A DNA stretch of 64,000 bases. Origin: Terriglobia bacterium. GTDB taxonomy: Bacteria > Acidobacteriota > Terriglobia > UBA7540 > JAPUME01. Shown here piece after piece: positions 20,344-39,680 of the stretch. A program made the position numbers and the translations under genes. Each line of letters begins with the position of its first letter. Within the stretch, counting starts at the first letter, position 1. The stretch spans positions 25,253 through 89,252 of the forward strand of contig CBDEGR010000001.1 in NCBI GenBank assembly GCA_965237895.1. Reading direction: 5' to 3'. The notes under the pieces were generated by a model. That model was not told the DNA's origin. It saw only the letters and a program-made list of their open reading frames with translations, and did not search any database.

Positions 20344-22617
20344 TCATGATTTGAACTGATACGGAAAGGCTGCGATCCGCACCCACTGGCCGGAGCGCAA
20401 CCGCACCGCCCTGAAAGGTTCCAGCCGATTCGCATCCACCTCGGTGCCCCGGGTGGAATTCAGGTCCTCGACCCAGATCGCTCCGTCAACGAGTCGCAAT
20501 CGCAGGTGACGCCGCGATACTTGAGGATGGCGAATCTCCACGTGACACAACTCCCTGGCCCTGCCGATCACCAGACCCTCAGCGGACGTGAACAGGTCTC
20601 GACGCAGGGGGATGGGTTCCGAGCCATCCAGAGGGATCAGTGTTCCCACCGCCCTGGCGGGGACAACGGCCGCCGGGGGCGGCACAGGTCCAGCCCGATT
20701 TTCTTCGCCCAAGGCCCCGGGAGCGTCTTCATGGGCGCGAGCGGCTCCCCTCATCGAGTCCCTACCCGGACGAAACTTGACCAGCGCGAACCCCGCAACC
20801 AGTAGCAGAATCGCTGCCACGATCCATAGAATCATTTGCTGAGCCGGGCGGAGCGACTCGCCGGGTTCCGGCAAGGGAAGATCCGGCTTGCCCGGGTCTG
20901 GCGCAGGCTTTGGCTCCGGGGCAGGTTCTTCTTGCGGTTGCGGTGCCGGTACCGGCTTCGGCGAGGGCGTAGGTCTTGGGGGCGGTTCAGGCTCCGGTTG
21001 CGGTGCGGGCTCGGCCTCCGGTTCCGGCTCAGGCTCAATCGGATTCCAGTAGCCCGGTATGCCGATGGCGTCCATGGCCGTGTGCGTGGCCGCCCACTCC
21101 GGCGAGGATTCGCCGTAGTGGATTTCGGCCACAGCCGCGAACGCGTATCGCGCCGCCTCGAAACCGGCGTTCGGCGTGAGCAGATCGGAGGCCGCGCGCC
21201 CGAATATTCTCAGCGCCTTCGCCAACCCCACGCCCTGCACCTCGGGCCCGGAACGCAGGCGAGGGTGCTGGCCGCCCATGGCCAACAGGTAATAGCCCTG
21301 GTTCATGATCGACGAATTGATGTGAACGCCGCCGTTGTCAACGCTGACGTGTCGGTAGTCGTCGAAATGGTCGGGATACGGCTTGCCGGTTTGGGGATCC
21401 ATGAGGCTTGGAGGATCTCTCATATCTCGCATCACACCGCCGGGATGGCGGAGTTGCCAGACCCGCGCCGGGACATCCGCCGGCAGTACCGTGCCGCCAT
21501 TCTCCAGCCAAGCTCGGAACGTCACGCCAACCGCGTCGGCAATGGCCTCGTTCAGGGCGCCCGGTTGCGACTTGTAGATGAGGCCGCTGCCCCAGTGGAT
21601 GATTGCGTGGCCGATCTCGTGACCGATGATCTCGCTATAGTCCAACGCGGCGCTCGGCAATAAGAACGCGTTCAAGCCGCCGTGCCAGAAGGCATTGAAG
21701 GCATCGCCGATACACTGAGGCGGGGGAGCCGTGGGATGGACGCGCACACCGATAAAGCCGTGCAACGTGCCGCCGCGGTCGTCGAGGCTGTCCATGTCTA
21801 GGGTAGCCTCGAGAAACCGATAGACCTCGCCGAACCTTTCGAACAGCCGCTCGACCTCGGCGTTGCCGCGGTGAGACACCTCACTTCGGATATGTCTCTT
21901 CATGGCGCGTCGCGCCAGTCGTAGGGAACGCTGCCAACCGACCACGCGGCGAACCTTGCGATCGCGGCAAGCGGCGCCGAAGTCGTACACGCGGCGGTCG
22001 AGTCCCGGGTGCGTCAGCGAAAAGCGCTGCAAGACGGTTCCTTTGTGCGCATCGACGTACACCCGTTCGAAGCTGACTTGCTCCTCTTCCGGAAACCAAC
22101 CTTCCAGTTCGTAGCTGAGCTTGAGTTCGTCCCCGTCCGGCCAGAACACGAGCCGGCCGGTGGGTGGATGGGCATCGGATGCGTGAGCGGCGGCCAGGAC
22201 ATCATCGAGTCCGAGAGTCGGATCAGCAGAAGGCGGATCGGGAAATGGCGTGTGGTGGCCAAGCAGATGAACGGGCTTGCGGTCGCCGTTCAGGAGCAAT
22301 CGGGATTCCCTGTGAACCACGGGCAGCTCCGCGAGGGTCTGGGCAAGGTTGTAGATGGCGTGGCCGCGCAGGCGGCGCGGCTCGCCTGCGACCTTGAGCC
22401 GGTCGCTGGCGGCCAAGCCAAGCCGCCGGTGCAGTGCTCCGGCCGCCCAACTCGAAACGGCGGCATCATCCGTCAGCCGGGACGCTCCGCGTGAGAAATC
22501 CAGCCGAGTGCCTGGGCGGTGCCGGCCGTCTTCTTGAGCCTGTGCTTCTCCAAAAGCAGCCAAGCACAAGAGCACCGCAGCCAGGCAGCGGCCACGCAGT
22601 TTACTGCGGGGATTCAT
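20344..22617 (-). CDS. Bitopic protein: secreted thermolysin-family (M4) metalloprotease with its own FTP/PepSY pro-region, Pro-rich linker, TM helix, cytoplasmic FHA domain
   Basis: Signal peptide CLAAVLLCLAAFGEAQA. HEIGH followed exactly 20 residues later by the Glu of GALNEAIAD (thermolysin spacing). GGVHINSSIMNQGYYLL. PEPEPEAEPAPQPEP linker. TM MILWIVAAILLLVAGFALV. FHA GLVIGRARELCHVEIRHPQVSRRHLRLRLVDGAIWVEDLNSTRGTEV. Start chosen at ATG 22617. Confidence 0.85.
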   Translation of the reverse strand: MNPRSKLRGRCLAAVLLCLAAFGEAQAQEDGRHRPGTRLDFSRGASRLTDDAAVSSWAAGALHRRLGLAASDRLKVAGEPRRLRGHAIYNLAQTLAELPVVHRESRLLLNGDRKPVHLLGHHTPFPDPPSADPTLGLDDVLAAAHASDAHPPTGRLVFWPDGDELKLSYELEGWFPEEEQVSFERVYVDAHKGTVLQRFSLTHPGLDRRVYDFGAACRDRKVRRVVGWQRSLRLARRAMKRHIRSEVSHRGNAEVERLFERFGEVYRFLEATLDMDSLDDRGGTLHGFIGVRVHPTAPPPQCIGDAFNAFWHGGLNAFLLPSAALDYSEIIGHEIGHAIIHWGSGLIYKSQPGALNEAIADAVGVTFRAWLENGGTVLPADVPARVWQLRHPGGVMRDMRDPPSLMDPQTGKPYPDHFDDYRHVSVDNGGVHINSSIMNQGYYLLAMGGQHPRLRSGPEVQGVGLAKALRIFGRAASDLLTPNAGFEAARYAFAAVAEIHYGESSPEWAATHTAMDAIGIPGYWNPIEPEPEPEAEPAPQPEPEPPPRPTPSPKPVPAPQPQEEPAPEPKPAPDPGKPDLPLPEPGESLRPAQQMILWIVAAILLLVAGFALVKFRPGRDSMRGAARAHEDAPGALGEENRAGPVPPPAAVVPARAVGTLIPLDGSEPIPLRRDLFTSAEGLVIGRARELCHVEIRHPQVSRRHLRLRLVDGAIWVEDLNSTRGTEVDANRLEPFRAVRLRSGQWVRIAAFPYQFKS

Positions 22618-24082
22618 CAGATTCGCCCGCCGGCGCTGCCCGTGAACCGACGACAACGGGCACACGGAGTAGTATTTCCCCTGTCTCGGCATCGAATATC
22701 GTCCGTTCCTCGCCTCGATCGATCAGGACTACGCCTTCCCAGGCCAGACGATAGCCGCCGCCTGCCACCCGAAAGATGACCAAGGTCCCCTCGTCCAACG
22801 CTTCGATCCGTTTGCCGGTCGAGTCTGCGGCAAGGGCGATGGTGGCGGGGTAGTCATGGGCGGGGCGGGGATCGATGTCGATTGCCGGGGCGGGGTGGCC
22901 CTGGATCTTGACGATGCGCCGGCCCTCCGCAATCACCGCCACCTCGGCAGCGAACACCCGGATGTCTTTATGTTTCTGCCTCAATCGGCTGATGGTCTTG
23001 CCGACCATTCGGCGTCCCTTACCAGCCGGTTCCAGGGTGTCCTGGTTGCCGATCCTGCCCGCCTTGCGCAACGCATCGGCGACGGTCTCCGGCACGGTGC
23101 TTCCGGGTTCAACCTCGCGGTCAATTTCGATTTCCACGCGCTCGATGGGCACGGGAATGCCCTCGGGCGGAGTCTCTTCGGCGCTTCGCGACTCTTCCGT
23201 CGACCGCGCCCGGTCATTCGGGTCGGATTCCTCCGTCTCCTGGCGTGGCGCCGCCGCGGGGAGAGGCTGCGCCCTCAGGTTCAGCAACAAGACTGAGGCC
23301 AGCACGGCGAGCAGGAGTGCGCCGATTACCCACCAACGCCGGTTACGCCTGGGAGCGGCGACTTCCGCCAAGATGGCCGTGGTGTTGTCGTGGCGCTGCA
23401 GCCGCTCGAGTTTGTCGGCAAAGCGCGCTTCCAGCTCGCGCCCAGGATTGGATGACTCAAAGACCGCGAGGATTTCGTCGGGCGAGAAGATCTCCCAGAA
23501 GCCGTCGCTGCACACGGCGAACCGCCTGCCTTCCACTAGGTCCCAGCGCTCGACTTGCGCCTCAGGCGCGTCTCGGCCGCCGATCTGCGTGAAGAGCTTC
23601 TTCTGATCCGGATGGGTGGCGAGCGCCTCCTCGGCGATGACGCCGCGCAGCACGTTCAGTTGGGCAATGGAGTGGTCCAGCGTTCGCCGGGCGAGCCCCG
23701 TGCCGGAGAACTGCATGACACGGCTGTCGCCGGCATGGATGGAGGTGACTTCCGCGCCGCGCCCCAGCAGCGCCACCAGTGTAGAGCGGGGATCCAGTCC
23801 CGGCTCGTCCCCCGCCCTGTTCACGGCGGCGTGGCATTCGCGCACCAGATCGGTCAGGAAGGCTTCAGCTTCCAGGTCCTCGCTTCGCGAGTTCCAGCAG
23901 CGCTCGGCGGTCTCGATGACTGTCTGCGCCGCGAGAGCGCCTCCGCGATGTCCGCCGAGGCCATCGGCCACCACCAGGAGAAAGGCGTCTCCGCCAGGCG
24001 ACCGAAGGACCTTCATTCGATCCTGGTTCTCGCACCGGTGCCCGATGTGCGTGAATCCGTGCGCCGTCATCGTAGAGATCAT
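22601..24082 (-). CDS. Bitopic protein: cytoplasmic PP2C phosphatase, TM helix, extracytoplasmic FTP/PepSY-like (M4 pro-peptide-like) module
   Basis: PP2C motifs LLVVADGLGGHRGG, AVCSDGFW, HDNTTAIL. TM WWVIGALLLAVLASVLLL. The ectodomain VADALRKAGRIGNQDTLEPAGKGRRMVGKTISRLRQKHKDIRVFAAEVAVIAEGRRIVKIQGH ... RLAWEGVVLIDRGEERTIFDAETGEILL parallels the pro-region of the downstream M4 protease. Start ATG 24082. Its stop overlaps the M4 start by 17 nt. Confidence 0.8.
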   Translation of the reverse strand: MISTMTAHGFTHIGHRCENQDRMKVLRSPGGDAFLLVVADGLGGHRGGALAAQTVIETAERCWNSRSEDLEAEAFLTDLVRECHAAVNRAGDEPGLDPRSTLVALLGRGAEVTSIHAGDSRVMQFSGTGLARRTLDHSIAQLNVLRGVIAEEALATHPDQKKLFTQIGGRDAPEAQVERWDLVEGRRFAVCSDGFWEIFSPDEILAVFESSNPGRELEARFADKLERLQRHDNTTAILAEVAAPRRNRRWWVIGALLLAVLASVLLLNLRAQPLPAAAPRQETEESDPNDRARSTEESRSAEETPPEGIPVPIERVEIEIDREVEPGSTVPETVADALRKAGRIGNQDTLEPAGKGRRMVGKTISRLRQKHKDIRVFAAEVAVIAEGRRIVKIQGHPAPAIDIDPRPAHDYPATIALAADSTGKRIEALDEGTLVIFRVAGGGYRLAWEGVVLIDRGEERTIFDAETGEILLRVPVVVGSRAAPAGESDESPQ

Positions 24083-24167
24083 CGGTTCTCGCTCGTGGTC
24101 GTCCAAATGTGGCGAAGATCGACCCGCCGGAGCATCCTGCACTGAACCCACGTCTCCGGACCACGGG

Positions 24168-24196
24168 TTGAGCCGCCCTCGAACGTCTGCTATTAT
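24168..24196 (+). promoter_or_regulatory. Candidate sigma70-type promoter for the kinase gene
   Basis: TTGAGC - 17 nt - TATTAT in the 240-bp divergent intergenic region between the PP2C and kinase genes. Confidence 0.3.
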
Positions 24197-24321
24197 ACTC
24201 CTCACGCCTTGCGGTGTAATATCGCTACTCGGTGGAGCGTCCGATTGCCGTGATTCGCGGCGAACCCGCCCAAGTTTTGCTCCAGCGCGGATAAGCTCAA
24301 TCGCAGAAAGAGAGGGATGCC

Positions 24322-26151
24322 TTGCAGACGGAAGGCCGGTCGCGGAATGCGTTGCCGCCCGGCACCGTGCTGAACGGTGTTTACCGGGTCGAGGTGGAGG
24401 TGGGCCAGGGGGGCTTCGGCATCGTGTACCGGGCACAGCACAACGAGTTGGGCTATCGGGTCGCAATCAAGGAGTACCTGCCGGCGGAGTTGGCCGTACG
24501 CGAGGGCCGCTCCGTCCACCCCCGCAGCGTGGACTGCCGCGAACAATACCAAGAGGGCCTGCGCCGCTTCCTGGAGGAGGCGAAACAACTCATCCAGTTC
24601 CGAGCTCATCCAAGCATCGTCTCCTGCCGGGACTTCTTCCGGGCCAACGGCACGGCGTACCTGGTGATGGAGTACGAAGAGGGCCTGCCGCTGTCCGAGT
24701 TGCTGCAGGTACGGGAGGAGGAGGGAAGGCCCTTCGGCGAGGCGGATTTGCGGAAGGTGATGGTGCCGCTGCTGGAGGGTTTGGCGCGCGTGCATGCAGC
24801 GGGGGTGCTGCACCGGGACGTCAAGCCGGCGAACATCCTGGTGCGGCGGGAGGACGAGCGTCCGGTGCTGATCGACTTCGGCGCGGCGAAGCAGAACTTT
24901 GCGGAGCACAGCAAGTCGCTGGCGCCGGTTACGGCAGGGTACGCGGCCATCGAGCAGGTGGGGGAGGGCAAGCTGGGCCCGTGGACGGACCTGTACGCGG
25001 CCGGGGCGGTGATGTGGCGCATGGTGGCGGGAGGGAACCGGCCGTTCGAGCCGCCGAATCCGGTGAAGGTGGAGAGTCGGACCCATGCGGTGTTGCGGGA
25101 AGAGGCGGACCCGCTGCCGTCGGCGCGGGAGTTGGGTAGGGGGCGGTTTTCGGAGCGAGTGCTGGGAGCGATCGACCAGTGTCTGGAGTTGCGGGAAGCG
25201 GACCGGGTGCAGGACTGTGGGGAGTTACTGGGTCTGCTGGATGCGAAGAGGAAACGCGACGAGGGGAGGCAGAAGTTCACCGCCGCGGACGGGAGCGTAT
25301 GGGAAGGCCCCGTTGTGGACGGCCAGCGGCAAGGTCACTGGGTCGCTCGCCGGGCGGACGGGACCGTAGGAGAAGGACCCTTTGTGGACGGTCAGCGACA
25401 CGGCGACTGGGTCTGGCGCTTTGCGGACGGGAGCGTGTACGACCTCTCCTATATGACCGGAAAGCGGGTCTCCTCCGTCCGGCGGGGGGTGGCGCCGGCG
25501 GCAGCGGAGCCGCGGCCTGATAAGGCAGAAGCCAAACCCTCGCGTGCCGCATGGAAGTTTTCGAGGCGTTGGAAGTGGATTGCGGCGGGGTTCGCGATGC
25601 TAGCAATTAGCTCGAACCAGTTTCTTCAGAATCTGAACCGCGGCGAGGGTAGGCAAAAGTTCACCACCGCAGACGGGAGCGTATGGGAAGGACCCTTTGT
25701 GGACGGCAAAAAGCATGGCAACTGGGTCGTACGCTTGGCGGACGGGACCGTAGCGGAAGGTCCCTTTGTGGACGACAAGCGGCACGGCGACTGGGTCGAG
25801 CGCTTTGCGGACGGGACCGTAGGGAAAGGTCCCTATGTGGACGACAAGCGGCACGGCGACTGGGTTGTTCCCTTGGCGGACGGGTCCGTACAGGAAGGTC
25901 CCTATGTGGACGACAAGATGCACGGCCGCTGGGTCATTCGCTTGGCGGACGGGTCCGTAGCGGAAGGTCCCTTTGTGGACGACAAGATGCACGGCCGCTG
26001 GGTCATTCGCTTGGCGGACGGGACCGTACAGGAAGGTCCCTATGTGGACGGCAAGCAGCACGGCAACTGGGTCTGGCGCAAGGCGGACGGGACCGTGTAC
26101 GACGTCTCCTATAGGAACGGCGAGCAGGTCTCCTTCGTCCGGCGGAAGTAA
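24322..26151 (+). CDS. Hanks-type Ser/Thr protein kinase with two MORN-repeat blocks separated by a TM helix
   Basis: GQGGFGIVY, VAIK (Lys50), HRDVKPANIL (Asp166), DFG, APVTAGYAAIE. MORN block 1 (res 315-388), TM WKWIAAGFAMLAISS, MORN block 2 (res 442-609, six 23-aa repeats GP(F/Y)VDxK.HG.WV.R.ADG(T/S)V.E). TTG start as in the ORF track. Confidence 0.9.
   Translation: MQTEGRSRNALPPGTVLNGVYRVEVEVGQGGFGIVYRAQHNELGYRVAIKEYLPAELAVREGRSVHPRSVDCREQYQEGLRRFLEEAKQLIQFRAHPSIVSCRDFFRANGTAYLVMEYEEGLPLSELLQVREEEGRPFGEADLRKVMVPLLEGLARVHAAGVLHRDVKPANILVRREDERPVLIDFGAAKQNFAEHSKSLAPVTAGYAAIEQVGEGKLGPWTDLYAAGAVMWRMVAGGNRPFEPPNPVKVESRTHAVLREEADPLPSARELGRGRFSERVLGAIDQCLELREADRVQDCGELLGLLDAKRKRDEGRQKFTAADGSVWEGPVVDGQRQGHWVARRADGTVGEGPFVDGQRHGDWVWRFADGSVYDLSYMTGKRVSSVRRGVAPAAAEPRPDKAEAKPSRAAWKFSRRWKWIAAGFAMLAISSNQFLQNLNRGEGRQKFTTADGSVWEGPFVDGKKHGNWVVRLADGTVAEGPFVDDKRHGDWVERFADGTVGKGPYVDDKRHGDWVVPLADGSVQEGPYVDDKMHGRWVIRLADGSVAEGPFVDDKMHGRWVIRLADGTVQEGPYVDGKQHGNWVWRKADGTVYDVSYRNGEQVSFVRRK
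25645..26148 (+). repeat. Coding tandem repeat, 69-bp period (MORN units); a shorter copy of the same block lies at 25264..25485
   Basis: Adjacent units at about 25909-26046 are almost identical at the nucleotide level (GACGACAAGATGCACGGCCGCTGGGTCATTCGCTTGGCGGACGGG.CCGTA..GGAAGGTCCCT.TGTG). Confidence 0.9.
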
Positions 26152-26180: not shown

Positions 26181-27185
26181 TCAAATGCCGAGAATGGCGA
26201 GCAGCACGCTGGCGATCATGGACTCGCCGCCCGACCCATCGACAAACCGCCCCCGGCCGGCCTTGGCGAGTTCCCGCAGGAACGGTTCCGAGTTGCCGGA
26301 TTGCTCCCACGCCATGACCGCGGAAACATGCTGTCCGTCGGCCGCCGCAAACGCCCGAGCCGTCTGCAGGGCCGCGGCTTCCTTTTCGGGATAGGCTGGA
26401 TTATCCGTCACCGCGATGATGTAGCGGCGCTGGCTGACGGAACGCCAGTTCAGCGCCACGGCCCGGTCCAAGGCCATTGCCAGCGCTTCGGGATTATCGC
26501 GGTTTCTCCCGGCATAGGGATCACGCATATTTGGCCTCAGCGTTTCCACAAAGCGCTCCAGGGGCGCTAGGTTCGACGTCTCTACGATTTCCTGGACGTG
26601 AAGCGGCTGCTGCCAACGCCTGTCACCGAAGGCCACGACGCCGATGCCGGTGGAGGGCGTTAGCCTGTCCAACACCTTGGCCAGGTTCTCGATTTCCCGC
26701 TTCAGCCCTTCGACATGATCCTCCATGCTGGCGGTCACGTCCAGGCAGATCACCAGGTCGAGATCGGGAATCCGCACCTTGGCCAGCGTTTTCGCTAGGT
26801 CGCTGGCTCTTTCCTTGACTTGGTCGAGTTGCCGCTCAGCTTCGTTGAGCCGCCGCTCCGTTTGATTGCGATGGAGTTCCGCCTCGTCGCGCTGGCGTGC
26901 CAGCCTCTCGCCTTCATCGTCAGCCCCCTTGCGTTCCCGTGCCAGCTTCTCGGCTTCGTCACGCTGACGCTCCGCTTGATCTCGCTGGCGCCGGGCCGCG
27001 TCGCGCTGCTGTCTGGTCTCTTCGAGCGTCACCTTGACGTTCTTGATGCGTTCCCTGGAATCCCCGGTGTTGGGGAAGAACGGCAGCACCATCACCGCCA
27101 ACAGGATGAAGGCGCCCATGCCGGATGCGAACAGGTCCAGCGCGGACATGGAGAAGATGTTGATCTCCCGGCTGCGCCGCTTCAA
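26181..27185 (-). CDS. ExbD/TolR-like N-terminal TM anchor + charged coiled coil + von Willebrand A (vWA) domain
   Basis: MKRRSREINIFSMSALDLFASGMGAFILLAVMVL resembles the ExbD/TolR N-terminus, including an Asp at the TM entrance. RQ/RD/AE heptad-rich segment. vWA start DLVICLDVTASM (MIDAS-like DxTxS), GVVAFGD, IIAVTDN. Confidence 0.7.
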   Translation of the reverse strand: MKRRSREINIFSMSALDLFASGMGAFILLAVMVLPFFPNTGDSRERIKNVKVTLEETRQQRDAARRQRDQAERQRDEAEKLARERKGADDEGERLARQRDEAELHRNQTERRLNEAERQLDQVKERASDLAKTLAKVRIPDLDLVICLDVTASMEDHVEGLKREIENLAKVLDRLTPSTGIGVVAFGDRRWQQPLHVQEIVETSNLAPLERFVETLRPNMRDPYAGRNRDNPEALAMALDRAVALNWRSVSQRRYIIAVTDNPAYPEKEAAALQTARAFAAADGQHVSAVMAWEQSGNSEPFLRELAKAGRGRFVDGSGGESMIASVLLAILGI

Positions 27186-28681
27186 CGGCTCCCGTCCTTG
27201 AGAAAGTGCACCACAAGATCAATGTCGCCCAGTGTGAGACGCGACCCGTCCCGGACGACGAGCGCTTCTCCGGGCTTCAACCTGACGCCGTCGAGACTCG
27301 TGCCGTTCAAGCTGTTCATGTCTTCGATGGTCATGGCGTCGCCGTCCACGCGGAGGCGGGCATGCTCGCGGGAAATGCTGTCCACGCCGATGACGTAGTC
27401 CGCATTGGCGGAAGAGCGGCCGATCACCTGGCCGGCTTCCGATCTGGCGAGGGCGTTGCCGTTGACCTTGACGCGCAGTTCCTGCTCGAGCGGCCCCACG
27501 CCGGCCAGAATCACGTCGGAGAAGGTGACGTTGCCGCGCTCCAGGCGGCTACGGGCCGCCGACAGCTCTTGGTCGGATTCACGCAGCCTGCGCTGGCGCG
27601 CGCGAAACTGCCGTCTTACCAGAACTCCGGCCACCAGGAACAGGGCTCCCAGAACGATGCCGATGAACCACTGTCGGCGGCGCAATTCCTCCTGTTCCCG
27701 CTGCCGCTGTGCGAGCTCTTCATCCTTGCGGTGGCTTTCCTCTTGGTGCCGTTCTATTTGCTCTTCCAGGTCTTTCTGCGACTGCGACTGCTCTTTCAGC
27801 GCCTGTTGCTTGCTGGCCAGCTCCTGACTTTGCCTCCGCAGGTGTTCTTCCAGTGCCGCCTTGTTCGCTTCGAGTTCCTGCACCTGCTCCTGATTCTGCT
27901 GTTGGTTCTCGCTCGACGCTGCCTTGAGCTGCTCGAGTTTCTGCTCCAGCGCGGCTTTCTCCTCTTCCACCTGTTGTCTTTCCTGCTCCAGCGCTGCCGT
28001 TCCCTCTTCCAGCTCTTTCCCCGTTTTCTCTGCCTGCAAGAGCTGATCTTGCAGAGAAGGGCAGACTTCGCCGCTGGTCTCAAACTCGACTGCCTGCGCT
28101 TTCAGGAAGGCCACGAGGGCCGACAGGGCGCCGCTGACGCCCAAATTCGCATCGCCGCCGCCCGGGCTGCTCGGCTTGCTCTGGCTGATGGCCAGGAGTT
28201 CATCGCAGTTGTTCATGAGCGGCGCCGCGGCCTCGTCCTCCCCAACGATGGAAGTGAATCGATAGCGGACTTGCTCATCCTTCCCTTTGAAGATGGAGTG
28301 CAGCGTGCCTTTGCGCCGAGTCCCTTCCGGAACCAGGAGGTACACTCGTCGGCCCTCTCCCGATGCTTCCAGAGCAACCGTCACCGGCTCGCCGCCCAGA
28401 CCCGGGACCGAAAGCAGCGCCAGATCGGCGTCCGCTTCGCGGGCCTTCACGGTAGCCACCAACCGGGCGCCCGTGGCCGGATCGTGGACCAGGTACTGGC
28501 CTCCGCGCGAAACCAAGCGATGACTGGTCAACAGCAGTCCGTCTGCCATCAGCACGCTCACGCCCGCCGCCGCTTCCTCGCCGCGCTTTTGCACCACGAG
28601 GCGGAATGCGGTCTCGGCCATGGCGGGCGCCGCCGTCGCCAGAATCGATGCGAGGACCAGGAGCTTTTGGATTCTGTTCAT
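27182..28681 (-). CDS. Bitopic protein: signal peptide, trypsin-like (S1C-fold) module lacking the catalytic Ser motif, long coiled coil, TM helix, cytoplasmic FHA
   Basis: LLLTSHRLV and ADADLALLSVPG match the His and Asp regions of HtrA-like proteases. The GNSGGP position reads EDEAAAPLMNNCDELLAIS. About 130 aa are E/Q/K-rich coiled coil. TM WFIGIVLGALFLVAGVLV. FHA QVIGRSSANADYVIGVDSISREHARLRVDGDAMTIEDMNSLNGTSLDG. Confidence 0.7.
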   Translation of the reverse strand: MNRIQKLLVLASILATAAPAMAETAFRLVVQKRGEEAAAGVSVLMADGLLLTSHRLVSRGGQYLVHDPATGARLVATVKAREADADLALLSVPGLGGEPVTVALEASGEGRRVYLLVPEGTRRKGTLHSIFKGKDEQVRYRFTSIVGEDEAAAPLMNNCDELLAISQSKPSSPGGGDANLGVSGALSALVAFLKAQAVEFETSGEVCPSLQDQLLQAEKTGKELEEGTAALEQERQQVEEEKAALEQKLEQLKAASSENQQQNQEQVQELEANKAALEEHLRRQSQELASKQQALKEQSQSQKDLEEQIERHQEESHRKDEELAQRQREQEELRRRQWFIGIVLGALFLVAGVLVRRQFRARQRRLRESDQELSAARSRLERGNVTFSDVILAGVGPLEQELRVKVNGNALARSEAGQVIGRSSANADYVIGVDSISREHARLRVDGDAMTIEDMNSLNGTSLDGVRLKPGEALVVRDGSRLTLGDIDLVVHFLKDGSR

Positions 28682-28693
28682 TTCAGGTACCGT

Positions 28694-29458
28694 CTAGGGT
28701 TTGATTTCTTGTCCGTCCGGGCGGAACACGATCACGGTGGCATTGTCTTGCGACGGCAGGGCGTGCGCTTCGACGGCTTGCAGGATGGCGCCGACCAGGC
28801 CGGCGGAAGATGACGGGCCATCGGCGATTTCACGCAGCTCTTCGAGTGAGCACGTCTCCACCCCGTCGCTGGCCAATACCACAAGGTCTCCGGGTTGGAG
28901 CGGCAGAGGGTCCGGCGGCGCGTCGACCCGTTCGATGTCTTCTCCCAGCACGGCCTCCAGCAACCGGGATCGCTCGGCGTCTTCGGCGGCTTCCTGGACC
29001 GTGATCTCGCCGGCCGCGGCGCGTCGGTCGAGGACGCCTCCGATGGAGTGATTCTCGTTCAAGCGATGCACCTCGCGGTTGCGCAACAACCACAGCGGGC
29101 TATCGCCTACACTCACCCACTGCAGCGAATTCCCATCCACGGCGGCGGCTACCAGCGTCGTGCCCATGCCGGCCAAGTGCGGCTCCGCCTCGATACGGTC
29201 GAACAGTGCGAGGTTCGCCGCCTGGAGCGCTCGGAGCAAGCGCTCCCTGGAGCCTGGATCGCGGGCTTCGACAAACGCATCGCGGAAGCTCTCGACCACG
29301 GTGGCGCTGGCTGCATCGCCCGCGGCATGCCCGCCGATGCCATCTCCCAGCAGCAGCAGGTGATAACCGTTGGGCCAGGACAGGCAGGCCGCCCGGTCCT
29401 GCTGAGACTCCCGTTGCCCCTGTATCTGCCCCCAGGCGATGTCGGCCGCCACCGTCAC
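28694..29458 (-). CDS. Soluble PP2C-family Ser/Thr phosphatase
   Basis: LLLLGDGIGGHAAGDAAS, MGTTLVAA, VVLASDGV, QDNATVIVF. Confidence 0.9.
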   Translation of the reverse strand: MTVAADIAWGQIQGQRESQQDRAACLSWPNGYHLLLLGDGIGGHAAGDAASATVVESFRDAFVEARDPGSRERLLRALQAANLALFDRIEAEPHLAGMGTTLVAAAVDGNSLQWVSVGDSPLWLLRNREVHRLNENHSIGGVLDRRAAAGEITVQEAAEDAERSRLLEAVLGEDIERVDAPPDPLPLQPGDLVVLASDGVETCSLEELREIADGPSSSAGLVGAILQAVEAHALPSQDNATVIVFRPDGQEIKP

Positions 29459-30147
29459 TCACCCGGTTCTTCCTGGTCCAGCCATGTGAACTCGTCGTCG
29501 CAAAACGCTATGAATCGCAAGGTCGTTTCGCCCAGGGCAATCCGGCTTCCGGGAGGCAAGGGGGTCGTCTCCAGTACGGGATTCTCGTCAAGATACACCA
29601 GATTGACGCCTTGCCCCTGCTGAACGTAGAACCGATTTCCCCTGGGGTCGTAGGTGAGAACGGCGTGGTCGTTCCGAGAAATCTGCTGGTCGCCGAAGTT
29701 CAGGCGCACGCGGCAGGTCTCGCCTCGGCCGATGCCGTTCTGTCCGTTGCCCAAGCGCACAGAGGAACCCTTGCCCGGGCCATCCACCACCACCAGCCAG
29801 CCGACGACCGGATCCGCCATTCCCGGCTCGTCGCCGCCCTCGGCCCCCTTGCCCGGGGCCCGCCGCCGTCCCCCTGCAATCACGGTCCTCGGATCTCTGC
29901 CTTCCTGGGTATCGCCGCGCGCTCCGCCGCCCGCGGAGCGGGTCACCGGTTTCGTCGGCGCCTCTTCCGGGAACAAGGAGCTGCGCTGTGACCGCGACGG
30001 CGGCGCCGTCGGATCATCGCCTGAGGAAGCACTGCCCGGCCCGGCCGCCTTGTCCGATTCACGGTTCGCAAGTCGCGGCGCATCCTCCGGCAGCGGTGTG
30101 GATGGGATATCGACGGGCACGCCGTCCGGGCCCAGTTTCTTCGCCAT
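29455..30147 (-). CDS. FHA-domain protein with ~120-aa disordered Pro/Ser/Thr-rich N-terminus
   Basis: GWLVVVDGPGKGSSVRLGNGQNGIGRGETCRVRLNFGDQQISRNDHAVLTYDPRGNRFYVQQGQGVNLVYLDENPV. Its stop overlaps the PP2C start (ATGA). Confidence 0.85.
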   Translation of the reverse strand: MAKKLGPDGVPVDIPSTPLPEDAPRLANRESDKAAGPGSASSGDDPTAPPSRSQRSSLFPEEAPTKPVTRSAGGGARGDTQEGRDPRTVIAGGRRRAPGKGAEGGDEPGMADPVVGWLVVVDGPGKGSSVRLGNGQNGIGRGETCRVRLNFGDQQISRNDHAVLTYDPRGNRFYVQQGQGVNLVYLDENPVLETTPLPPGSRIALGETTLRFIAFCDDEFTWLDQEEPGE

Positions 30148-30187
30148 GTCAAGCTCCCTTCTTCATTATTATCCACATATTCACCAT

Positions 30188-31009
30188 CTACTGCCTACTA
30201 TTCCTCTCCTCATAGAGGCGATTGATCAAGTTGTCCAGGCAATACTGGCCGGCGCTGTTGAGCGCGGCTTCCTCCTTTCCCTGGGCCATGTGCAGCAGGA
30301 ACACGAGCACCGCCGACATGATCAAGGCGACCAGCGTGGTGCTGAAGGCGATTCCCAGCTTGGTGGTCATTGCGGCGAACCAGGCTTTGACTTCGTTGGA
30401 CGAGTCCAGGTCGGGCATGTCGCCGGCCGCCGACAGCGCCAGGGCGATCCCAACGACCGTGCCGATAAAGCCCAAGGTCGGGATGAGCCAGACCAGATAC
30501 CGCAGCATATTGTACTTGAGCTCGATCTCGTGCTGCATCAGTTCGAGGCTCGAGTTCATCAGACTGTTGGCTTGATCAATGGACTGGCTGATCTGAAACT
30601 GTTGCACGATCCGGACGATCAGGCGCTGCAGCCGGAAATAACGCGCCTGCTTGACCTTCATGACGTTCCGGTAGAAGGGGATGAGGTCCTTGGCCCGGAG
30701 CATGGTGCTTTCGTCTTCCGGAAGAAGGCCCTTGCCGAACTGCTCCGCTTCGCCGGTGGCGCGGTGAAAGCGAACCCAGAGTTCGCCTAGCCCGAAGAAG
30801 CACATAAGCCACATGACGTTCTGAATCGTCAGCGGATAGATGTTGCTGGCGCGGTCGAGGAGCAGGGCCGAAGCCTGGATCTCACCGGAACCCGCCTCCG
30901 GCCAGGGGAGCGCGAAGGTCAGCAACCCGATGACGGCGCACCCGGCGAGCACCGCCGCCAAGGCCACGATGACCCGGTATTGCTGTTCGTCACCTTCCAG
31001 TGGATTCAT
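30188..31009 (-). CDS. MotA/TolQ/ExbB-family proton-channel protein
   Basis: Four predicted TM segments. YLVWLIPTLGFIGTVVGIALAL and LGIAFSTTLVALIMSAVLVFLL match the conserved C-terminal MotA_ExbB helices. Confidence 0.8.
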   Translation of the reverse strand: MNPLEGDEQQYRVIVALAAVLAGCAVIGLLTFALPWPEAGSGEIQASALLLDRASNIYPLTIQNVMWLMCFFGLGELWVRFHRATGEAEQFGKGLLPEDESTMLRAKDLIPFYRNVMKVKQARYFRLQRLIVRIVQQFQISQSIDQANSLMNSSLELMQHEIELKYNMLRYLVWLIPTLGFIGTVVGIALALSAAGDMPDLDSSNEVKAWFAAMTTKLGIAFSTTLVALIMSAVLVFLLHMAQGKEEAALNSAGQYCLDNLINRLYEERNSRQ

Positions 31010-31024
31010 GTAATCTTCCTGCGA

Positions 31025-31375
31025 TCAGGCTTCGACTTCTCCGGTTTCGACATTTCGGCGCGGCTTGACGGAGACTGGCTCGTAGGCCGGGATCGACGCC
31101 TCGTCGGGGAAAGACCTCCCTTTCAGTATGTCGGTCAGGGCAACCTCGCACTTGCCGAACCGGAGCTTTGCGTCCGAGTCCACGTAGCCCTGCTTGTGGG
31201 ACGCCCACTTACCGTTGCGCAGTACGCGAGTCCCCCGGAGAGAGTTCCGGTCCGTTAAGTAGCAGCGTCCACCGCGGGTCAACGTCAGCTCAGCGTGCAT
31301 CCGGCTCACCGAAATGTCGTCGAGCCGGATGTCGGCGTTCCTGCTGCGGCCAATCGTAAGTGTTTGAAATGCCAT
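31025..31375 (-). CDS. Stand-alone FHA-domain protein (116 aa), first gene of the minus-strand operon
   Basis: LTIGRSRNADIRLDDISVSRMHAELTLTRGGRCYLTDRNSLRGTRV. AGGAAG SD for the next gene lies 15 nt downstream. Confidence 0.85.
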   Translation of the reverse strand: MAFQTLTIGRSRNADIRLDDISVSRMHAELTLTRGGRCYLTDRNSLRGTRVLRNGKWASHKQGYVDSDAKLRFGKCEVALTDILKGRSFPDEASIPAYEPVSVKPRRNVETGEVEA

Positions 31376-31589: not shown

Positions 31590-31868
31590 ATGTCCATCAA
31601 GAAGCACAAGCCGGAACAGATCGTAACAGTACTGCGGCAGATAGAAGTGCAGATGGCGAACGGAAAGACGGCCCCGCAAGCCTGTAAAGAGGCGGAAATC
31701 CACACTCAGACCTATTACCGCTGGCGGAAGGAGTACGGCGGTCTAAAGATGGATCAGGCCAAGCGGTTGAAGGTCCTCGAGCAGGAGAACACTCGCTTGA
31801 GGAGGGCGGTTGCAGACCTGACCTTGGACAAGCAGATTCTGCAGGAGGTCACAAGGGGAAACGGCTAA
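31590..31868 (+). CDS. IS3-family transposase OrfA (HTH)
   Basis: MSIKKHKPEQIVTVLRQIEVQMANGKT..THTQTYYRWRKEYGGLKMDQAKRLKVLEQENTRLRRAVADL (leucine zipper). Confidence 0.9.
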   Translation: MSIKKHKPEQIVTVLRQIEVQMANGKTAPQACKEAEIHTQTYYRWRKEYGGLKMDQAKRLKVLEQENTRLRRAVADLTLDKQILQEVTRGNG

Positions 31869-31912
31869 GCCCGGCGCGTCGCCGGCAGTGGGCGGCGCAT
31901 GTCTGTAAGGCG

Positions 31913-32761
31913 TTGGGTGTCTCGGAACGCCGGGCTTGTCGAGTGCTCAGCCAACCCCGGTCCACCCAGCGCCATCGATGCATCGCTGCTCCCGACGAGG
32001 ATGCCCTGACGAGGGCCATCGTCACCCTGGCCGGTCGGTTTGGTCGCTATGGCTATCGTCGGGTCACGGCCTTGCTGCGGCGAGCCGGGTGGAGGGTCAA
32101 CCATAAGAGAGTGGAGCGCATCTGGAGGCGGGAGGGACTGAAAGTGCCGAAGAAACAGCCCCGCAGAGGCTGGCTGTGGTTGAACGATGGGTCGTGCTTT
32201 CGGTTAAGACCGTGCTGGCAGGATCATGTCTGGGCGTACGATTTTGTGGCAGATCGAACCCACGATGGTCGTCCACTGAAGATCTTGACGGTGGTGGATG
32301 AATACACGCGAGAGTGTTTGGCGATCGACGTAGAACGGCGAGCTGATTCGATGAGTGTCTTGGAACGGCTAGCAGCCTTGTTTGTGGAGCGGGGAGTTCC
32401 CGATTACCTTCGCTCGGATAATGGGTCCGAGTTCACCGCTCGGTTGGTACGGGACTGGCTGGAACGGGTAGGGGTGAAAACCCTGTTCATCGAGCCTGCG
32501 AGCCCCTGGGAAAACGGGTATGTGGAATCGTTTAACGGGAAGTTTCGAGACGAGTTTCTGAATGGAGAGATCTTTTACACCTTGCGGGAAGCGAAGGTGT
32601 TGATTGAGGGATGGCGGCGGGAGTATAACAGAGTTCGCCCGCACAGCGCGTTGGGCTACCGGCCGCCAGCCCCGGAAGTGATCCTGCCGTTACCGCCGGG
32701 TTCCGCTCCGCTCCACCCGGCTGCAACGGAGTATGGACTAACATGGAAGGTGGACCAATAA
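31913..32761 (+). CDS. IS3-family transposase OrfB (rve integrase core); probably expressed as an OrfAB frameshift fusion
   Basis: YGYRRVTALLRRAGWRVNHKRVERIWR, VWAYDFV, LRSDNGSEFTA, PWENGYVESFNGKFRDE, RPHSALGYRPP. Confidence 0.9.
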   Translation: MGVSERRACRVLSQPRSTQRHRCIAAPDEDALTRAIVTLAGRFGRYGYRRVTALLRRAGWRVNHKRVERIWRREGLKVPKKQPRRGWLWLNDGSCFRLRPCWQDHVWAYDFVADRTHDGRPLKILTVVDEYTRECLAIDVERRADSMSVLERLAALFVERGVPDYLRSDNGSEFTARLVRDWLERVGVKTLFIEPASPWENGYVESFNGKFRDEFLNGEIFYTLREAKVLIEGWRREYNRVRPHSALGYRPPAPEVILPLPPGSAPLHPAATEYGLTWKVDQ

Positions 32762-33426: not shown

Positions 33427-33786
33427 ATGAAAAATTATGCCCAGCTGATCACGCTTGTAGGTGTCGTTGTTGGTGCTTGGCTTGGGTATCTCTACTCTAG
33501 CTCTTTGTCTCAGAAACAGAACCTTGCAAACTATCGCTACGCAGCCTATCAGGATTTTATCAGAGTCAATTTCCTCGATTACGGAGGCGACCCGAACAAA
33601 CTCGACACAGAGAAAGAGAAGCAGTTTGATGCTTACCATCGAGTCGCAGTATTCAGCTCCGCATCGGTGGTGAAGGAGGTTGCAAGTTTCTTAACCGTGG
33701 CGGGTCAGCGAGGCAATACCTGCGATGAAACCGATCGGAAGCAAGCAGATCTCAAGATGCACCAGGCAATTCGCCGCGAGGTTTAA
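33427..33786 (+). CDS. Hypothetical small membrane protein
   Basis: AAAGGAGGA SD 8 nt upstream of ATG 33427. One N-terminal TM (LITLVGVVVGAWLGYLY). Confidence 0.5.
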   Translation: MKNYAQLITLVGVVVGAWLGYLYSSSLSQKQNLANYRYAAYQDFIRVNFLDYGGDPNKLDTEKEKQFDAYHRVAVFSSASVVKEVASFLTVAGQRGNTCDETDRKQADLKMHQAIRREV

Positions 33787-34934
33787 TTGAGATCGCCGGA
33801 TCAGTTATTGGATTGTTTAATCGTAGTGAACCAGGATCCGCACCACCGCCAGCTTGGTGTTGTCGTACAGCATGGGTCGCGGTACTCCGCCGAAGTACGC
33901 GAACGCTTGATTGTGCCCTTCCAGAAACGCCCCCGGCGCTCAGCCGGGTCGCAAAGGTGTGCCGCAACTCGTACAGCGAGAAATGGGGCAACCCGGCACG
34001 CTGCAGCGTCCGGTCCCACAGCTTGGTCACCCTCGTGATGTGCGGCTTGCGCGAGTTCCTCCGCGGGCTCGGGAACAGATAGTCGGAATCGCCGCTCTGC
34101 TTCATCTGCGAGGCGAACGCTTCGCGGACTCGGTCCGTCATCGGCATGTCCGCGATGCCGTTCACCGTCTTGGAATCCGGCAGATGCACGATCCCGTTCT
34201 GCAGGTCGACCTGTTCCTTTCGCATCGGGATCAACTCCCGATAGGGCCGCAGCCCCATCTCCACCATGATCACGATGATGTTGCGCAAGTACACAGATGC
34301 ACAGGCTTCCAGCCGCACCTGCTCCGAGGCGCTCAGATAGTGCGGCTTGCGCGTCGTACCCGCCAGCGCGACCGGAAACTCCACACTGCCGCACGGATTG
34401 ACCGCCAGCCGCCGCTTCTTCACCGCCACGTTCAGGATGCGGCGTCAGGATGCGAAGCTCCTGATGCACGGTGGCCGGCTTGAGCCGACCGCGAAGTTGC
34501 AGCCCCAACTTGGTGTGCACCCGCTTGCCTGTGTTCAATCTCGTCATCAGATACGCTTCTATATCTTCCACTGTGATGTCCGAGAGTCTCTTCTCGCCGA
34601 ACCGAGGCCTGAGGAACTTCAACGCGCTGAGGTTTTGCCGGTGGGTCTTCTCGCTCCGGAAGGGCGGTTGGGAGCGCTTCTCCAGGAACCAGTCTGCCCA
34701 CTGGTTGAAAGTGATCCCACCGTCCGGCGCGGCACTCGGCAGCAACCCCTCGTCGCGAGCCACCAACCGCTTGCGCAGCAGCCAGGCGTCTTCCACTGTT
34801 TTCTCCCAACTCCTTCCTTTCGTTGCTCTTACACGGTTTTGGGGCGTCTGCTTTCGCTCGCAACGCCTACGCCTAGCCCGCTTGATGGGTGAGTTTTCTG
34901 ACGGTTTCTTGACGGTAGTTGCTGCTACAGCCAT
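33752..34934 (-). pseudogene. Tyrosine integrase, at least two frameshifts (near 34435 and near 33930)
   Basis: The N-terminal two fifths are read in ORF 33801..34934 (..FNQWADWFLEKRSQPPFRSEKTHRQNLSALKFLRP..). The catalytic half is in ORF 33752..34429 (..[31 protein letters not shown]). The final LGH/Y segment is lost to another frame. It is a paralog of the intact integrase at 60848. Confidence 0.8.
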
Positions 34935-36654: not shown

Positions 36655-37407
36655 TCATTTGAATTTATCGCCGATCGCGTCGCTCAGCACATCCTTAACA
36701 AAATCAGGAAGCTTTTTCCGAGCATGTTTTGACAGCTCAACGAGGCGATCATATGCGGATATTTCGCCACCTGACCAAACGACATCAAGGCGTCGAATGA
36801 GTCGCAAGGCGACATGAACGTAATTCTCGGGAGTGGCCCAATAGCATGATTGACATACTTCAATCAAAAGGTCTGTTGTCCAATTCTTGCAGTGTTCGCA
36901 TGACCACGACTTTGCTCGATTGCAGGAACCGCACACGAGCATGAATTGAGCGGGGTCTAGTTCCCCTGCTGGCTCACCGGAGACCTCAAATGGAACACAA
37001 TGATCGATTTGCAGATAGCGCGGTTCGTATTTTGTGAAACAAATACTACAACGCGATCCATAGAGTTCAACCAAGGTTCCCTTGAAGTTCTTCGGCCACG
37101 CCTTGCGACCCCCAAGTTTTCCACCTTTGATCTCGGCAGGATCGCCGAATCGATAGGCACCTATTTTTCGGCCATGTGCTCCCGTTACACGAAACGTTTC
37201 CAACGGAATGCCTTGCTCCCGCACATCACGTGCGGCTCGCGGCGGGTGATCATACCCGTATTTTTCGCTCAACTCTTCAGTTGTGATGGAACCATGCTTC
37301 AGAATGTGATCGATGACGGTCTTCGCACGCTTCGCCGTGACAGCTCTTAGGCGACTAAGGAATTCTTTTGGGAGTTGCGGTTTCTGTGTGCGTTTTTTCT
37401 TTGCCAT
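36655..37407 (-). CDS. HNH-type restriction endonuclease (N-terminal wHTH + HNH/Cys4 core)
   Basis: CSICFTKYEPRYLQIDHCVPFEV...FMLVCGSCNRAKSWSCEHC (HNH beta-beta-alpha-Me with flanking Cys pairs). Lies 12 nt downstream of the methyltransferase. Confidence 0.75.
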   Translation of the reverse strand: MAKKKRTQKPQLPKEFLSRLRAVTAKRAKTVIDHILKHGSITTEELSEKYGYDHPPRAARDVREQGIPLETFRVTGAHGRKIGAYRFGDPAEIKGGKLGGRKAWPKNFKGTLVELYGSRCSICFTKYEPRYLQIDHCVPFEVSGEPAGELDPAQFMLVCGSCNRAKSWSCEHCKNWTTDLLIEVCQSCYWATPENYVHVALRLIRRLDVVWSGGEISAYDRLVELSKHARKKLPDFVKDVLSDAIGDKFK

Positions 37408-37419
37408 TGTCGGGCTTCC

Positions 37420-38316: not shown

Positions 38317-38358
38317 ACGTCCACTCTCGCCCCTACTTGGTGGCGGCTGTTGTCAGGA

Positions 38359-39267: not shown

Positions 39268-39403
39268 CTTCCTCCTTCTACGCCACCCGAGGCTCCCCGA
39301 ATCCCGTCGATCCCCCAAACCGTAACGCCCTTGAGACAGACCTAGCGACTCGGGCCATAGCCCCGATCCGGCCCGCGCGGCTGCTGTATTTGCCGGATAT
39401 AGT

Positions 39404-39589: not shown

Positions 39590-39680
39590 GGCTTATTCTC
39601 CCATGCGCCCCAGACAAGAGGACTACAGGGCTAACGAGGGGGCTCACGCCCGGACGCTTTTGATCCAGCTGGCAAACGGT

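Follow-up and report, generated by a model that had tools for sequence, protein, structure and literature searches.

A MotA/TolQ/ExbB-like channel protein and a helix-anchored vWA protein as candidate partners in a phospho-signalling gene cluster on a Terriglobia conjugative element

When a gene for a MotA/TolQ/ExbB-type channel protein stands in an operon that holds no ordinary ExbD, TolR or MotB gene, which protein, if any, takes the place of the inner subunit? This question is raised by a 64,000-nt stretch of DNA from a Terriglobia bacterium (GCA_965237895.1, contig CBDEGR010000001.1, positions 25,253-89,252 of the forward strand), hereafter the window. An operon on its minus strand (31375..26181) encodes a MotA-like channel subunit of 273 aa (30188..31009, minus strand) and ends with the gene of a 334-aa protein (26181..27185, minus strand), hereafter the anchor, which consists of an N-terminal transmembrane (TM) helix, a coiled-coil stalk and a head of the von Willebrand factor A (vWA) type. 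It is proposed here that the MotA-like protein and the anchor are the two subunits of an Asp-dependent complex of the MotAB/TolQR/ExbBD type, a reading to which we give a probability of about 0.6.

The product of 30188..31009 is a divergent MotA/TolQ/ExbB protein, in agreement with what the earlier note on this DNA had read from the letters. The Pfam family PF01618 (MotA_ExbB) matches residues 135-245 with E=3.4e-10 (40.2 bits against a cut-off of 22.9), and it is present in all 120 listed homologues. Single-chain structures were predicted with AlphaFold2 (AF2) and compared with the PDB by Foldseek. The MotA-like model, with a predicted local distance difference test (pLDDT) score of 84, has four TM helices together with a small helical domain on the cytoplasmic side, and its 50 top matches are all TolQ, ExbB, MotA or PomA chains. 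TolQ and ExbB rank best, followed by MotA/PomA, the best match being the TolQ of A. baumannii (8vlw), with a TM-score of 0.71 on the target and 0.59 on the query. In an alignment of 34 homologues the pore residues P177, G180, G183, T184, G187, T224 and T225 are invariant, and the TM3 motif P-x2-G-x2-G-T-x2-G-I pairs with TolQ residues 130-157, including T145 (hhalign E=0.0043). The chain stops about 30 residues past TM4.

The missing partner gene was sought at several scales, and the claim that no ordinary ExbD, TolR or MotB gene is present held throughout. The nine cluster proteins gave no match to ExbD, TolR or MotB models, and phmmer searches with E. coli TolR, ExbD and MotB (E<=1) found no open reading frame (ORF), either in the window or in 80 related loci comprising about 1.6 Mb of flanks. 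These loci, on which all locus counts given below are based, are the best 80 of 256 anchor relatives recovered in a scan of 185,579 GTDB species representatives, namely those closest to the window. In seven Pfam-annotated neighbourhoods no ExbD, MotB or OmpA-type partner was found, and about 90 related loci were checked overall.

The anchor, for which 707 homologues were found, is therefore examined as the candidate partner. Its reading frame begins at a TTG codon in a 4-nt overlap with the upstream stop, and the protein starts MKRRSREINIFSMSALDLFASGMGAFILLAVMVL. The short tail MKRRSRE, with four basic residues, is followed by a hydrophobic stretch at residues 11-34 (FSMSALDLFASGMGAFILLAVMVL; 27084..27155, minus strand), in which Asp17 (codon 27135..27137) lies near the cytoplasmic end of the helix. 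In the AF2 model (pLDDT 81) the TM helix spans residues 16-36, two long helices (43-86 and 92-136) make up the charged stalk (residues 43-136; 26778..27059), and an alpha/beta vWA fold occupies residues 142-332, within the domain assigned to residues 142-334 (26184..26762). The predicted topology is that of a single N-terminal TM helix, N-in, with a conserved Asp near its cytoplasmic end; according to the positive-inside rule, the basic tail would be cytoplasmic, and the stalk and vWA head would be periplasmic. Neither the ExbD/TolR fold nor an OmpA-like peptidoglycan-binding domain is present, the part beyond the membrane being coiled coil and vWA.

For the head, the fold matches are BatB (3ibs, E=3.4e-9), the vWA domain of the anthrax receptor CMG2/ANTXR and integrin beta I domains. 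The Pfam matches of the window protein itself are sub-threshold (VWA_2 E=7.8e-5). Among 63 anchor representatives drawn from 50%-identity clusters, and 22-50% identical overall to the window protein, VWA is found in 43 and VWA_2 in 42 at E<=0.01. The motif of the metal-ion-dependent adhesion site (MIDAS) is intact, as D149-x-T151-x-S153 with T260-D261; D149 and S153 are kept in 51 of the 63 representatives (the remainder being nearly all gaps) and D261 in 60. The head can thus be described as a vWA domain with a complete set of MIDAS residues and predicted metal binding. The architecture first suggested for this protein, namely a basic tip, a membrane Asp, a coiled coil and a vWA domain with DxTxS, was recovered in the model as the helix at 16-36, a helical stalk of about 95 residues and the intact MIDAS.

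Evidence on how the anchor works comes from its helix. Asp17 is invariant in all 63 diverged representatives, and in the same alignment the mean column identity reaches 0.94 over residues 11-26 but only 0.35 in the vWA domain and 0.10 in the stalk. The helix is conserved at each position over about four turns and therefore on all of its faces, a pattern that fits a helix wholly enclosed by protein and is not expected of a lipid-facing anchor. Searched by itself against 1.84 billion representatives, the helix profile matches 961 clusters at E<=1e-3, and each of the 150 hits listed has its match at or close to the N-terminus, so that the observed helix-anchor arrangement is far beyond chance.

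Gene linkage points in the same direction. A MotA-like gene lies within 10 kb of the anchor gene, the distance used throughout for a nearby gene, in 65 of the 80 loci and in at least five phyla, and among MotA-like-centred loci with enough downstream sequence a gene for the helix protein was found in five of five. The two genes co-occur across lineages in both directions, as the earlier note had suggested could be checked. In eight loci (L033, L040, L041, L046, L049, L069, L079 and L086) the MotA-like gene stands immediately 5' of the helix gene, and the lineages with this direct adjacency include Azotimanducaceae, Alphaproteobacteria and a conjugative megaplasmid of Rhizobium leguminosarum. 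Two of these loci (L040 and L049) also show apparent ORFs that fuse the MotA-like and anchor genes; these were rejected as stop-free overlapping frames in GC-rich DNA, the MotA-like ORF ending at 9986 in another frame. A second helix gene is present in 9 of the 80 loci, the window having one only, and the tandem pairs of different helix proteins in some loci fit an inner subunit that is present in two copies.

Does the helix belong to the ExbD, TolR or MotB families? The earlier note had seen a resemblance of the anchor N-terminus to ExbD/TolR, and it had named the lack of any profile match as a result that would refute its proposal. Taken literally, this is the result obtained, as the resemblance is statistically undetectable. 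A Pfam search with the first 60 residues and with the whole anchor (E<=10) returned no ExbD (PF02472), TolR or MotB, and a 48-column helix profile run against all PDB sequences (E<=10) returned no ExbD, TolR, MotB, PomB or ZorB. A PDB match of this profile to insect odorant receptors covers 14 residues and was set aside as chance. By hhalign, the probabilities against E. coli TolR, ExbD and MotB were 0.3%, 0.1% and 0.5%, respectively, and an 'EINI' match to TolR (E=0.2) is suggestive only. The anchor is not shown to be a demonstrable member of the ExbD/TolR/MotB family by these sequence comparisons. Such tests are weak on a helix of about 20 residues, and an absent match says little about whether the helix works like that of ExbD, TolR or MotB. 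In view of its conservation and gene linkage, the anchor helix is likely a functional analogue of MotB/TolR/ExbD, that is, the inner subunit of a motor.

Several observations weigh against the proposed pairing. The most direct is the one just given, since no significant match by Pfam, PDB profile or hhalign connects the helix to ExbD, TolR or MotB by homology. On the side of the channel protein, the Foldseek E-values are only about 4e-3, and a PDB sequence search with the protein or with its 34-member profile (E<=1) found no chain; because these searches were empty, its family placement draws on the Pfam match and the fold only. On the side of the anchor, the TM helix in the monomer model is of low confidence (pLDDT 45-52), and the stalk and linker, from the TM exit at Pro38 to the vWA start at residue 143, vary from 11 to 132 residues in relatives, so that a fixed reach to the outer membrane is unlikely to be essential. 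Across loci the anchor measures 275-385 aa, and the 499-aa membrane-spanning protein encoded directly upstream of it stays at about 480-500 aa. In the linkage, 15 of the 80 loci have no MotA-like gene near the anchor. Three of the 15 (L007, L032 and L062) lie too near a contig end for a decision, two (L011 and L035, which share a chromosome with L008) are additional copies in a genome or contig where the full cluster is found elsewhere, and L058 is about 18 kb from L052 on the same contig. In L015 and L023 the anchor stands beside kinase, long PP2C and M4-FHA genes with no MotA-like gene nearby.

The loci L015 and L023, together with the absence of detectable helix homology, fit an arrangement in which the anchor helix lies outside the MotA-like ring. 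The helix would then bind the 499-aa FHA protein, the M4-FHA protease, the kinase or the exterior of the pentamer, in the manner of TolA/TonB, and the MotA-like protein would work alone or with an unlinked TolR/ExbD. There is a precedent, as a published vWA family binds TolQR-type motors laterally (PMC12204202). However, when the sequence is set against the description in that paper, the anchor helix has no SHLS/His motif of the TolA/TonB-type side binders, and an invariant membrane Asp with conservation on all faces would be unusual for a peripheral helix. Moreover, no linked TolR/ExbD gene was found in about 90 loci, the 499-aa protein shows little conservation in its TM helix, and the helix gene is directly 3' of the MotA-like gene in several lineages. 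A position outside the ring is accordingly judged quite unlikely, and the enclosed helix of the two-subunit complex is preferred.

The distribution of the family also bears on whether the two genes have a joint function at all. The anchor relatives occur in Acidobacteriota, Rhodothermales, Gemmatimonadota, Binatia, and Gamma- and Alphaproteobacteria. It could be argued that the cluster is an ordinary Ser/Thr signalling operon which happens to include an ExbB paralogue and a membrane vWA protein, and vWA/kinase/FHA/PP2C operons with no MotA-like gene do exist, for example DRA0331-0334 of Deinococcus. Yet the gene order is kept in Acidobacteriota, Rhodothermales, Gemmatimonadota, and Gamma- and Alphaproteobacteria, and this synteny, with the helix-specific conservation, strongly disfavours an incidental association, which we consider very improbable. 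Cultured carriers are rare in loci L003-L080 (Alteromonas, Halioxenophilus, Corallincola and Pseudomonas sp. WN033), and the cluster is also found on a Rhizobium plasmid. It was also observed that many carriers in these loci are metagenome-assembled genomes with names that suggest marine sponges, for example Poriferihabitaceae and Spongiihabitans; the bin names RHO3, CAR3 and APA may be sponge-derived as well.

Exchanges of the head were found among the relatives. The same helix and coiled coil carry a beta-rich, non-vWA head beside the MotA-like gene in L086 (9754..10491) and in L088, a Tara contig (12925..13530), and a helix protein with this head stands alongside a helix-vWA paralogue in L044 (9114..9884), L050 (19961..20902) and L066 (5212..6114). 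The head is recognised by the motif W..D[IV]DLHV.DP ... GPGNE.W ... PG.Y, and a Pfam search with it gave no significant match; its assignment to DUF2135 was rejected, as the Pfam E-value of 0.092 is not significant. Since the helix is kept while the head changes, the constant pair is the MotA-like protein with the helix, not the MotA-like protein with the vWA domain. The Rhizobium variant cluster of L086 (plasmid pRlBT01d, NZ_CP125637.1, 4018..17364, on a conjugative plasmid of 1.33 Mb) contains a kinase with PDZ domains, a PP2C, an FHA protein, the MotA-like protein, the helix protein with the beta-rich head, a 1610-aa low-complexity protein and a protein composed of signal peptide, vWA, TM helix and FHA. 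That the vWA domain has moved to this signal-peptide/TM/FHA protein is a hint of a partnership between the helix protein's head and the domain which the TM-FHA protein exposes to the periplasm.

The remaining genes of the operon place the pair in a phospho-signalling context. Six genes are packed on the minus strand with gaps of 15, 40, -4, 12 and -4 nt. The first encodes a stand-alone FHA protein of 116 aa (31025..31375; PF00498 E=8.7e-13) and ends 15 nt before the MotA-like gene, an arrangement in which its homologue is directly 5' of the MotA-like gene in 40 of the 80 loci and also in L084, L086, L087 and L088. The MotA-like gene is followed by a second FHA protein of 230 aa (29455..30147; PF00498 E=3.1e-8, residues 139-206), whose N-terminal half is rich in Pro, Ser and Gly and which is found in 58 of the 80 loci, and by a PP2C Ser/Thr phosphatase of 254 aa (28694..29458; PP2C_2 E=1.8e-12; NCBIfam Stp1/IreP-type PP2C E=1.4e-35), found in 61, whose gene overlaps the upstream gene by 4 nt.

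The fifth gene (27182..28681), with homologues in 65 of the 80 loci, encodes the 499-aa membrane-spanning protein, which is composed of a signal peptide, a degenerate trypsin-like domain, a coiled coil of about 140 aa, a TM helix and a cytoplasmic FHA domain (E=8.3e-16, residues 419-485). The match to Trypsin_2 is weak (E=6.8e-5, below the cut-off). In an alignment of 58 homologues the position of the would-be catalytic Ser is not conserved, C159 and C207 are invariant, the phospho-Thr-binding residues of the FHA domain (GRS, SRxH, NGT) are conserved, and the TM helix is poorly conserved, as mentioned above. Because the catalytic Ser is not conserved and a signal peptide and two conserved Cys are present, the N-terminal domain is probably a periplasmic binding domain or pseudo-protease, not an active protease.

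Three genes next to the operon complete the module. A Ser/Thr protein kinase of 609 aa with a TM segment (24322..26151, plus strand; Pkinase E=2.2e-37) converges on the operon, and a homologue is nearby in 73 of the 80 loci. In its translation many Gly/Trp/Asp repeats of about 23 aa, of the form DG[ST]V.EGP[FY]VD[GD]K.HG.WV, can be read on both sides of the TM segment; they are MORN-like by eye, and Pfam reports no repeat family for them. A second, longer PP2C with a TM segment and a C-terminal extension (22601..24466, minus strand; PP2C_2 E=2.4e-15, residues 137-331) has homologues in 45 of the 80 loci, and its true start is probably 3' of the listed TTG, as the ORF overlaps the kinase start. 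The third is a thermolysin-type (M4) metallopeptidase with a Pro-rich linker, a TM helix and a cytoplasmic FHA domain (20344..22692, minus strand; Peptidase_M4_C E=5e-33; FHA E=9.4e-14), in which the HExxH motif reads HEIGH in the translation; its homologues are found in 45 of the 80 loci, in Alteromonas L084, and in L087 and L088. The earlier note had placed the vWA protein under FHA/kinase control. The flanking FHA, PP2C and kinase genes are indeed there, and the word control follows from synteny only. As a separate observation, an 834-aa protein with two FHA domains and the ATPase and permease of an ATP-binding cassette (ABC) transporter adjoins the cluster of Alteromonas stellipolaris (L084, 1..734), and the window has no counterpart of it.

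Taken together, the parts suggest how the proposed complex might operate. Five MotA-like subunits would surround the N-terminal helices of two anchors (5:2), and Asp17 would act as the proton-binding site within a ring of Thr residues (T184 and T224/T225), the anchor thereby serving as a functional replacement for MotB/TolR/ExbD. In the periplasm, a dimeric coiled-coil stalk would be tipped by the vWA domain as a metal-dependent binding head, and proton flow could lead to the turning of, or a pull on, the partner bound by that head. In the cytoplasm, the kinase and the PP2Cs would set phospho-threonine marks that are read by FHA domains, namely those of the two soluble proteins that flank the motor gene and of the two membrane-spanning proteins with protease-like periplasmic and FHA cytoplasmic parts. 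The FHA domains, the kinase and the two PP2Cs may in this way gate or read out the motor, and motor activity would be linked to Ser/Thr signalling across the membrane.

A more far-reaching version is put forward tentatively, and we hold it possible but on the doubtful side: the clusters would represent a new functional class of 5:2 motor, mobile and gated by phosphorylation, in which a portable axle of Asp helix and coiled coil bears interchangeable periplasmic heads and acts against membrane-spanning protease-FHA proteins. Such a motor could couple the flow of protons with a mechanical probing of the envelope and with Ser/Thr signalling. As a device for envelope surveillance or against invaders, it could for instance use force to expose a partner held by the vWA head, or to bring about the cleavage of that partner.

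What the complex might be for can be approached from the DNA around it. The window is largely an integrative conjugative element (ICE), whose backbone spans 45658..62200. It contains an ArdC antirestriction gene (45790..46860), a TraG/VirB4-like ATPase (48688..51171), CagX/VirB9 (51176..52051), TrbI/VirB10 (52048..53382), TrbL/VirB6 (54404..55396), a coupling protein (57255..59495), a VirB11-type ATPase (59033..60451) and a tyrosine integrase (60830..62011) beside tRNA-Arg(CCT) at 62124..62200. With the conjugation backbone and the integrase beside the tRNA-Arg, the motor cluster is probably cargo of the ICE. Defence and mobile genes surround it at 2194..16287 and 36655..43487, including IS6/IS240 and IS1-like transposases, an Eco57I/MmeI-type restriction-methylase (6014..9259), an IrrE/M78 peptidase (13214..14293), a GmrSD_C protein (15682..16287), a D12 adenine methylase (37420..38316) beside a Cys-rich winged helix-turn-helix protein (36655..37407), a fragment of an N6/N4 methylase (41131..41742) and an EEP-family nuclease (42579..43487). 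A two-ORF element of the IS3 family (31590..32761) lies 214 bp upstream of the first operon gene; this insertion sequence (IS) may have displaced the operon promoter, or may supply it. Further along, two overlapping minus-strand ORFs (225 and 377 aa, 33752..34934) look like one tyrosine integrase split by a frameshift, with a weak Pfam match to the N-terminal SAM-like domain only. On the other side, a lytic transglycosylase with an SLT and two LysM domains (18760..20040) adjoins the cluster; it was considered as a part of the system and rejected, as it was not found in any of the 80 related loci.

Related clusters are flanked by transposases and HsdM, or are interrupted by IS elements, in some genomes, and are found among housekeeping genes in others. 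This mixture of mobile and housekeeping surroundings fits horizontal spread; a role in defence or conflict is possible and is not demonstrated. As the cluster is cargo of a conjugative element, a function in envelope surveillance or in conflict is probable. The same surroundings lend themselves to another account, in which an Asp-dependent channel complex does form but acts, in the manner of Zorya, as the gated proton leak or signal trigger of a defence or conflict system borne on a mobile element: the channel would open once the vWA head or the periplasmic proteases sense a disturbance, and the response would be relayed or licensed by the kinase/FHA module. This account draws on the type IV secretion genes, ArdC and tRNA-Arg integrase of the ICE, on its restriction-modification and GmrSD-like cargo, on the neighbouring transposases and HsdM or IS interruptions of homologous clusters, and on the patchy spread of the family over phyla with one copy on a conjugative Rhizobium megaplasmid. 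It also draws on weak matches to ZorA models (PADLOC E=5e-6), but these are matches at domain level only, and the MotA-like protein has no long ZorA tail. No nuclease or other recognisable effector is present in the cluster, several homologous clusters stand among housekeeping genes, and the system was not found in phage records. We therefore regard a leak or trigger as unlikely.

Against this background the proposed motor can be compared with known ones. The known 5:2 motors power flagella, Ton-dependent uptake, Tol-Pal envelope maintenance, gliding and type IX secretion, and Zorya defence. With TolQR/ExbBD the present pair shares the closest structure of the MotA-like protein, the TM Pro/Gly/Thr motif and a partner with a single N-in helix, an Asp near its cytoplasmic end and a periplasmic domain. 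It differs from them in having four TM helices instead of three, in a partner that has neither the ExbD/TolR periplasmic domain nor detectable sequence similarity, and in the absence of TolA/TonB, TolB and Pal genes, the partner itself bearing a long stalk and a binding head. The four-TM A subunit and the B-subunit helix with an essential Asp are shared with MotAB/PomAB, and E. coli MotA was the sole reference with weak phmmer matches (E about 1e-3), whereas an OmpA-like peptidoglycan-binding domain, a match to the plug motif, the large torque-generating cytoplasmic domain and flagellar genes are all lacking here. In GldLM, the motor of gliding and type IX secretion, a long periplasmic extension of the inner subunit carries the mechanical output, as is proposed for the anchor; GldL and GldM are not known to be related in sequence to the MotA-like and anchor proteins, and neither a vWA domain in GldM nor an accompanying phospho-signalling module is known.

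The likeness to Zorya ZorAB lies in the use of a MotAB-type complex in a non-motility role and in mobile or defence-rich DNA. Unlike Zorya, the present cluster lacks the cytoplasmic tail of ZorA, the peptidoglycan-binding domain of ZorB and any ZorC/D/E, and its long coiled coil is predicted to be periplasmic and sits on the B-type subunit. The ZorA matches (PADLOC, NCBIfam) cover the channel helices only, with 18-24 bits against a cut-off of 500, and the PADLOC models of ZorB-E gave no match in the cluster. BatA/BatB share the N-terminal TM anchor followed by a vWA domain, and BatB (3ibs) is the solved structure whose vWA fold comes closest. The partners encoded in the Bat operon are MoxR and DUF58 proteins, a MotA-like gene is not known from it, and no conserved Asp helix is known for BatA/BatB.

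The focal-adhesion machinery Agl-Glt of Myxococcus has parts in common with the cluster: AglRQS is a TolQR-like motor, GltG sits in the inner membrane and has its FHA domain in the cytoplasm, and CglB is an adhesin with a vWA domain (PMC11761067). The differences are that CglB is a separate outer-membrane adhesin and that the motor has canonical TolR-like subunits, whereas here the vWA domain is fused to the proposed inner motor subunit. The FHA domain of GltG was predicted by AlphaFold to dock on the cytoplasmic face of the TolQR-like AglR5QS (PMC11761067), which offers a precedent for an FHA domain at the cytoplasmic face of such a motor. In the window, the 116-aa FHA protein and the 499-aa protein show weak NCBIfam matches to GltG and GltJ, far below the family cut-offs.

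The closest published proposal was made in a study entitled 'Origin and Evolution of Bacterial Periplasmic Force Transducers' (Mol Biol Evol 2025; PMC12204202), which predicts vWA proteins with a trans-pore helix (TPH) as partners of TolQ-like proteins. Its authors described that vWA proteins tethered to the inner membrane co-occur with tolQ-like genes in the absence of tolR/exbD, and their AlphaFold3 (AF3) models set the conserved Asp of the TPH in the Thr ring of a TolQ-like pentamer. Their seed was Idiomarina loihiensis, and the vWA genes were adjacent to tolQ-like genes, mostly as heterologous pairs; FHA, PP2C and kinase genes are not mentioned (PMC12204202). The present family shares with the TPH-vWA family a TolQ-like gene with no tolR/exbD, a tethered vWA domain, an Asp helix with no SHLS/His motif and, in some loci, tandem helix pairs. 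It is unlike it in that the pair is interrupted by three genes, a single helix gene is present in the window, and a kinase/phosphatase/FHA/protease context is conserved. Compared by description, the two families may be the same or sisters; the published AF3 models speak for the two-subunit complex proposed here, though less firmly in so far as the family modelled may be another one. Among the named matches of the homologue searches, including one seeded from Alteromonas, there was no Idiomarina protein. The suggestion that a vWA payload would be a new variation was overstated, as the idea of a motor with a vWA partner had already been predicted computationally (PMC12204202).

What appears to be undescribed is the conserved cassette of FHA, MotA-like, FHA, PP2C, protease-like-TM-FHA and helix-vWA genes, together with the accessory module of kinase, PP2C and M4-FHA, the alternative head and the location on a mobile element, the ICE. 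Full-text literature searches found no paper that combines MotA/ExbB/TolQ with FHA, vWA and PP2C, and the vWA conflict-system papers of the Aravind laboratory make no mention of MotA, ExbB or TolQ. To the published TPH-vWA prediction the cluster adds a conserved context of phospho-signalling and protease-like genes, and a modular head.

If the proposed complex is real, a proton-binding inner subunit would bear, in direct fusion, a stalk with a vWA head of the adhesion type, and the motor would stand inside a eukaryote-like circuit of kinase, phosphatase and FHA proteins, so that chemiosmotic mechanics and phospho-signalling would be tied together across the inner membrane. The system is small, with six core genes, it has culturable carriers (Alteromonas, Pseudomonas sp. 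WN033, Halioxenophilus and Corallincola, besides the Rhizobium plasmid), and it offers one clear point mutation, at Asp17, by which the published TPH-vWA hypothesis becomes directly testable; the control of a 5:2 motor by phosphorylation could be studied in it as well. Should its role be defence or envelope surveillance on conjugative elements, it would represent a second, independent re-use of a MotAB-type complex in conflict systems.

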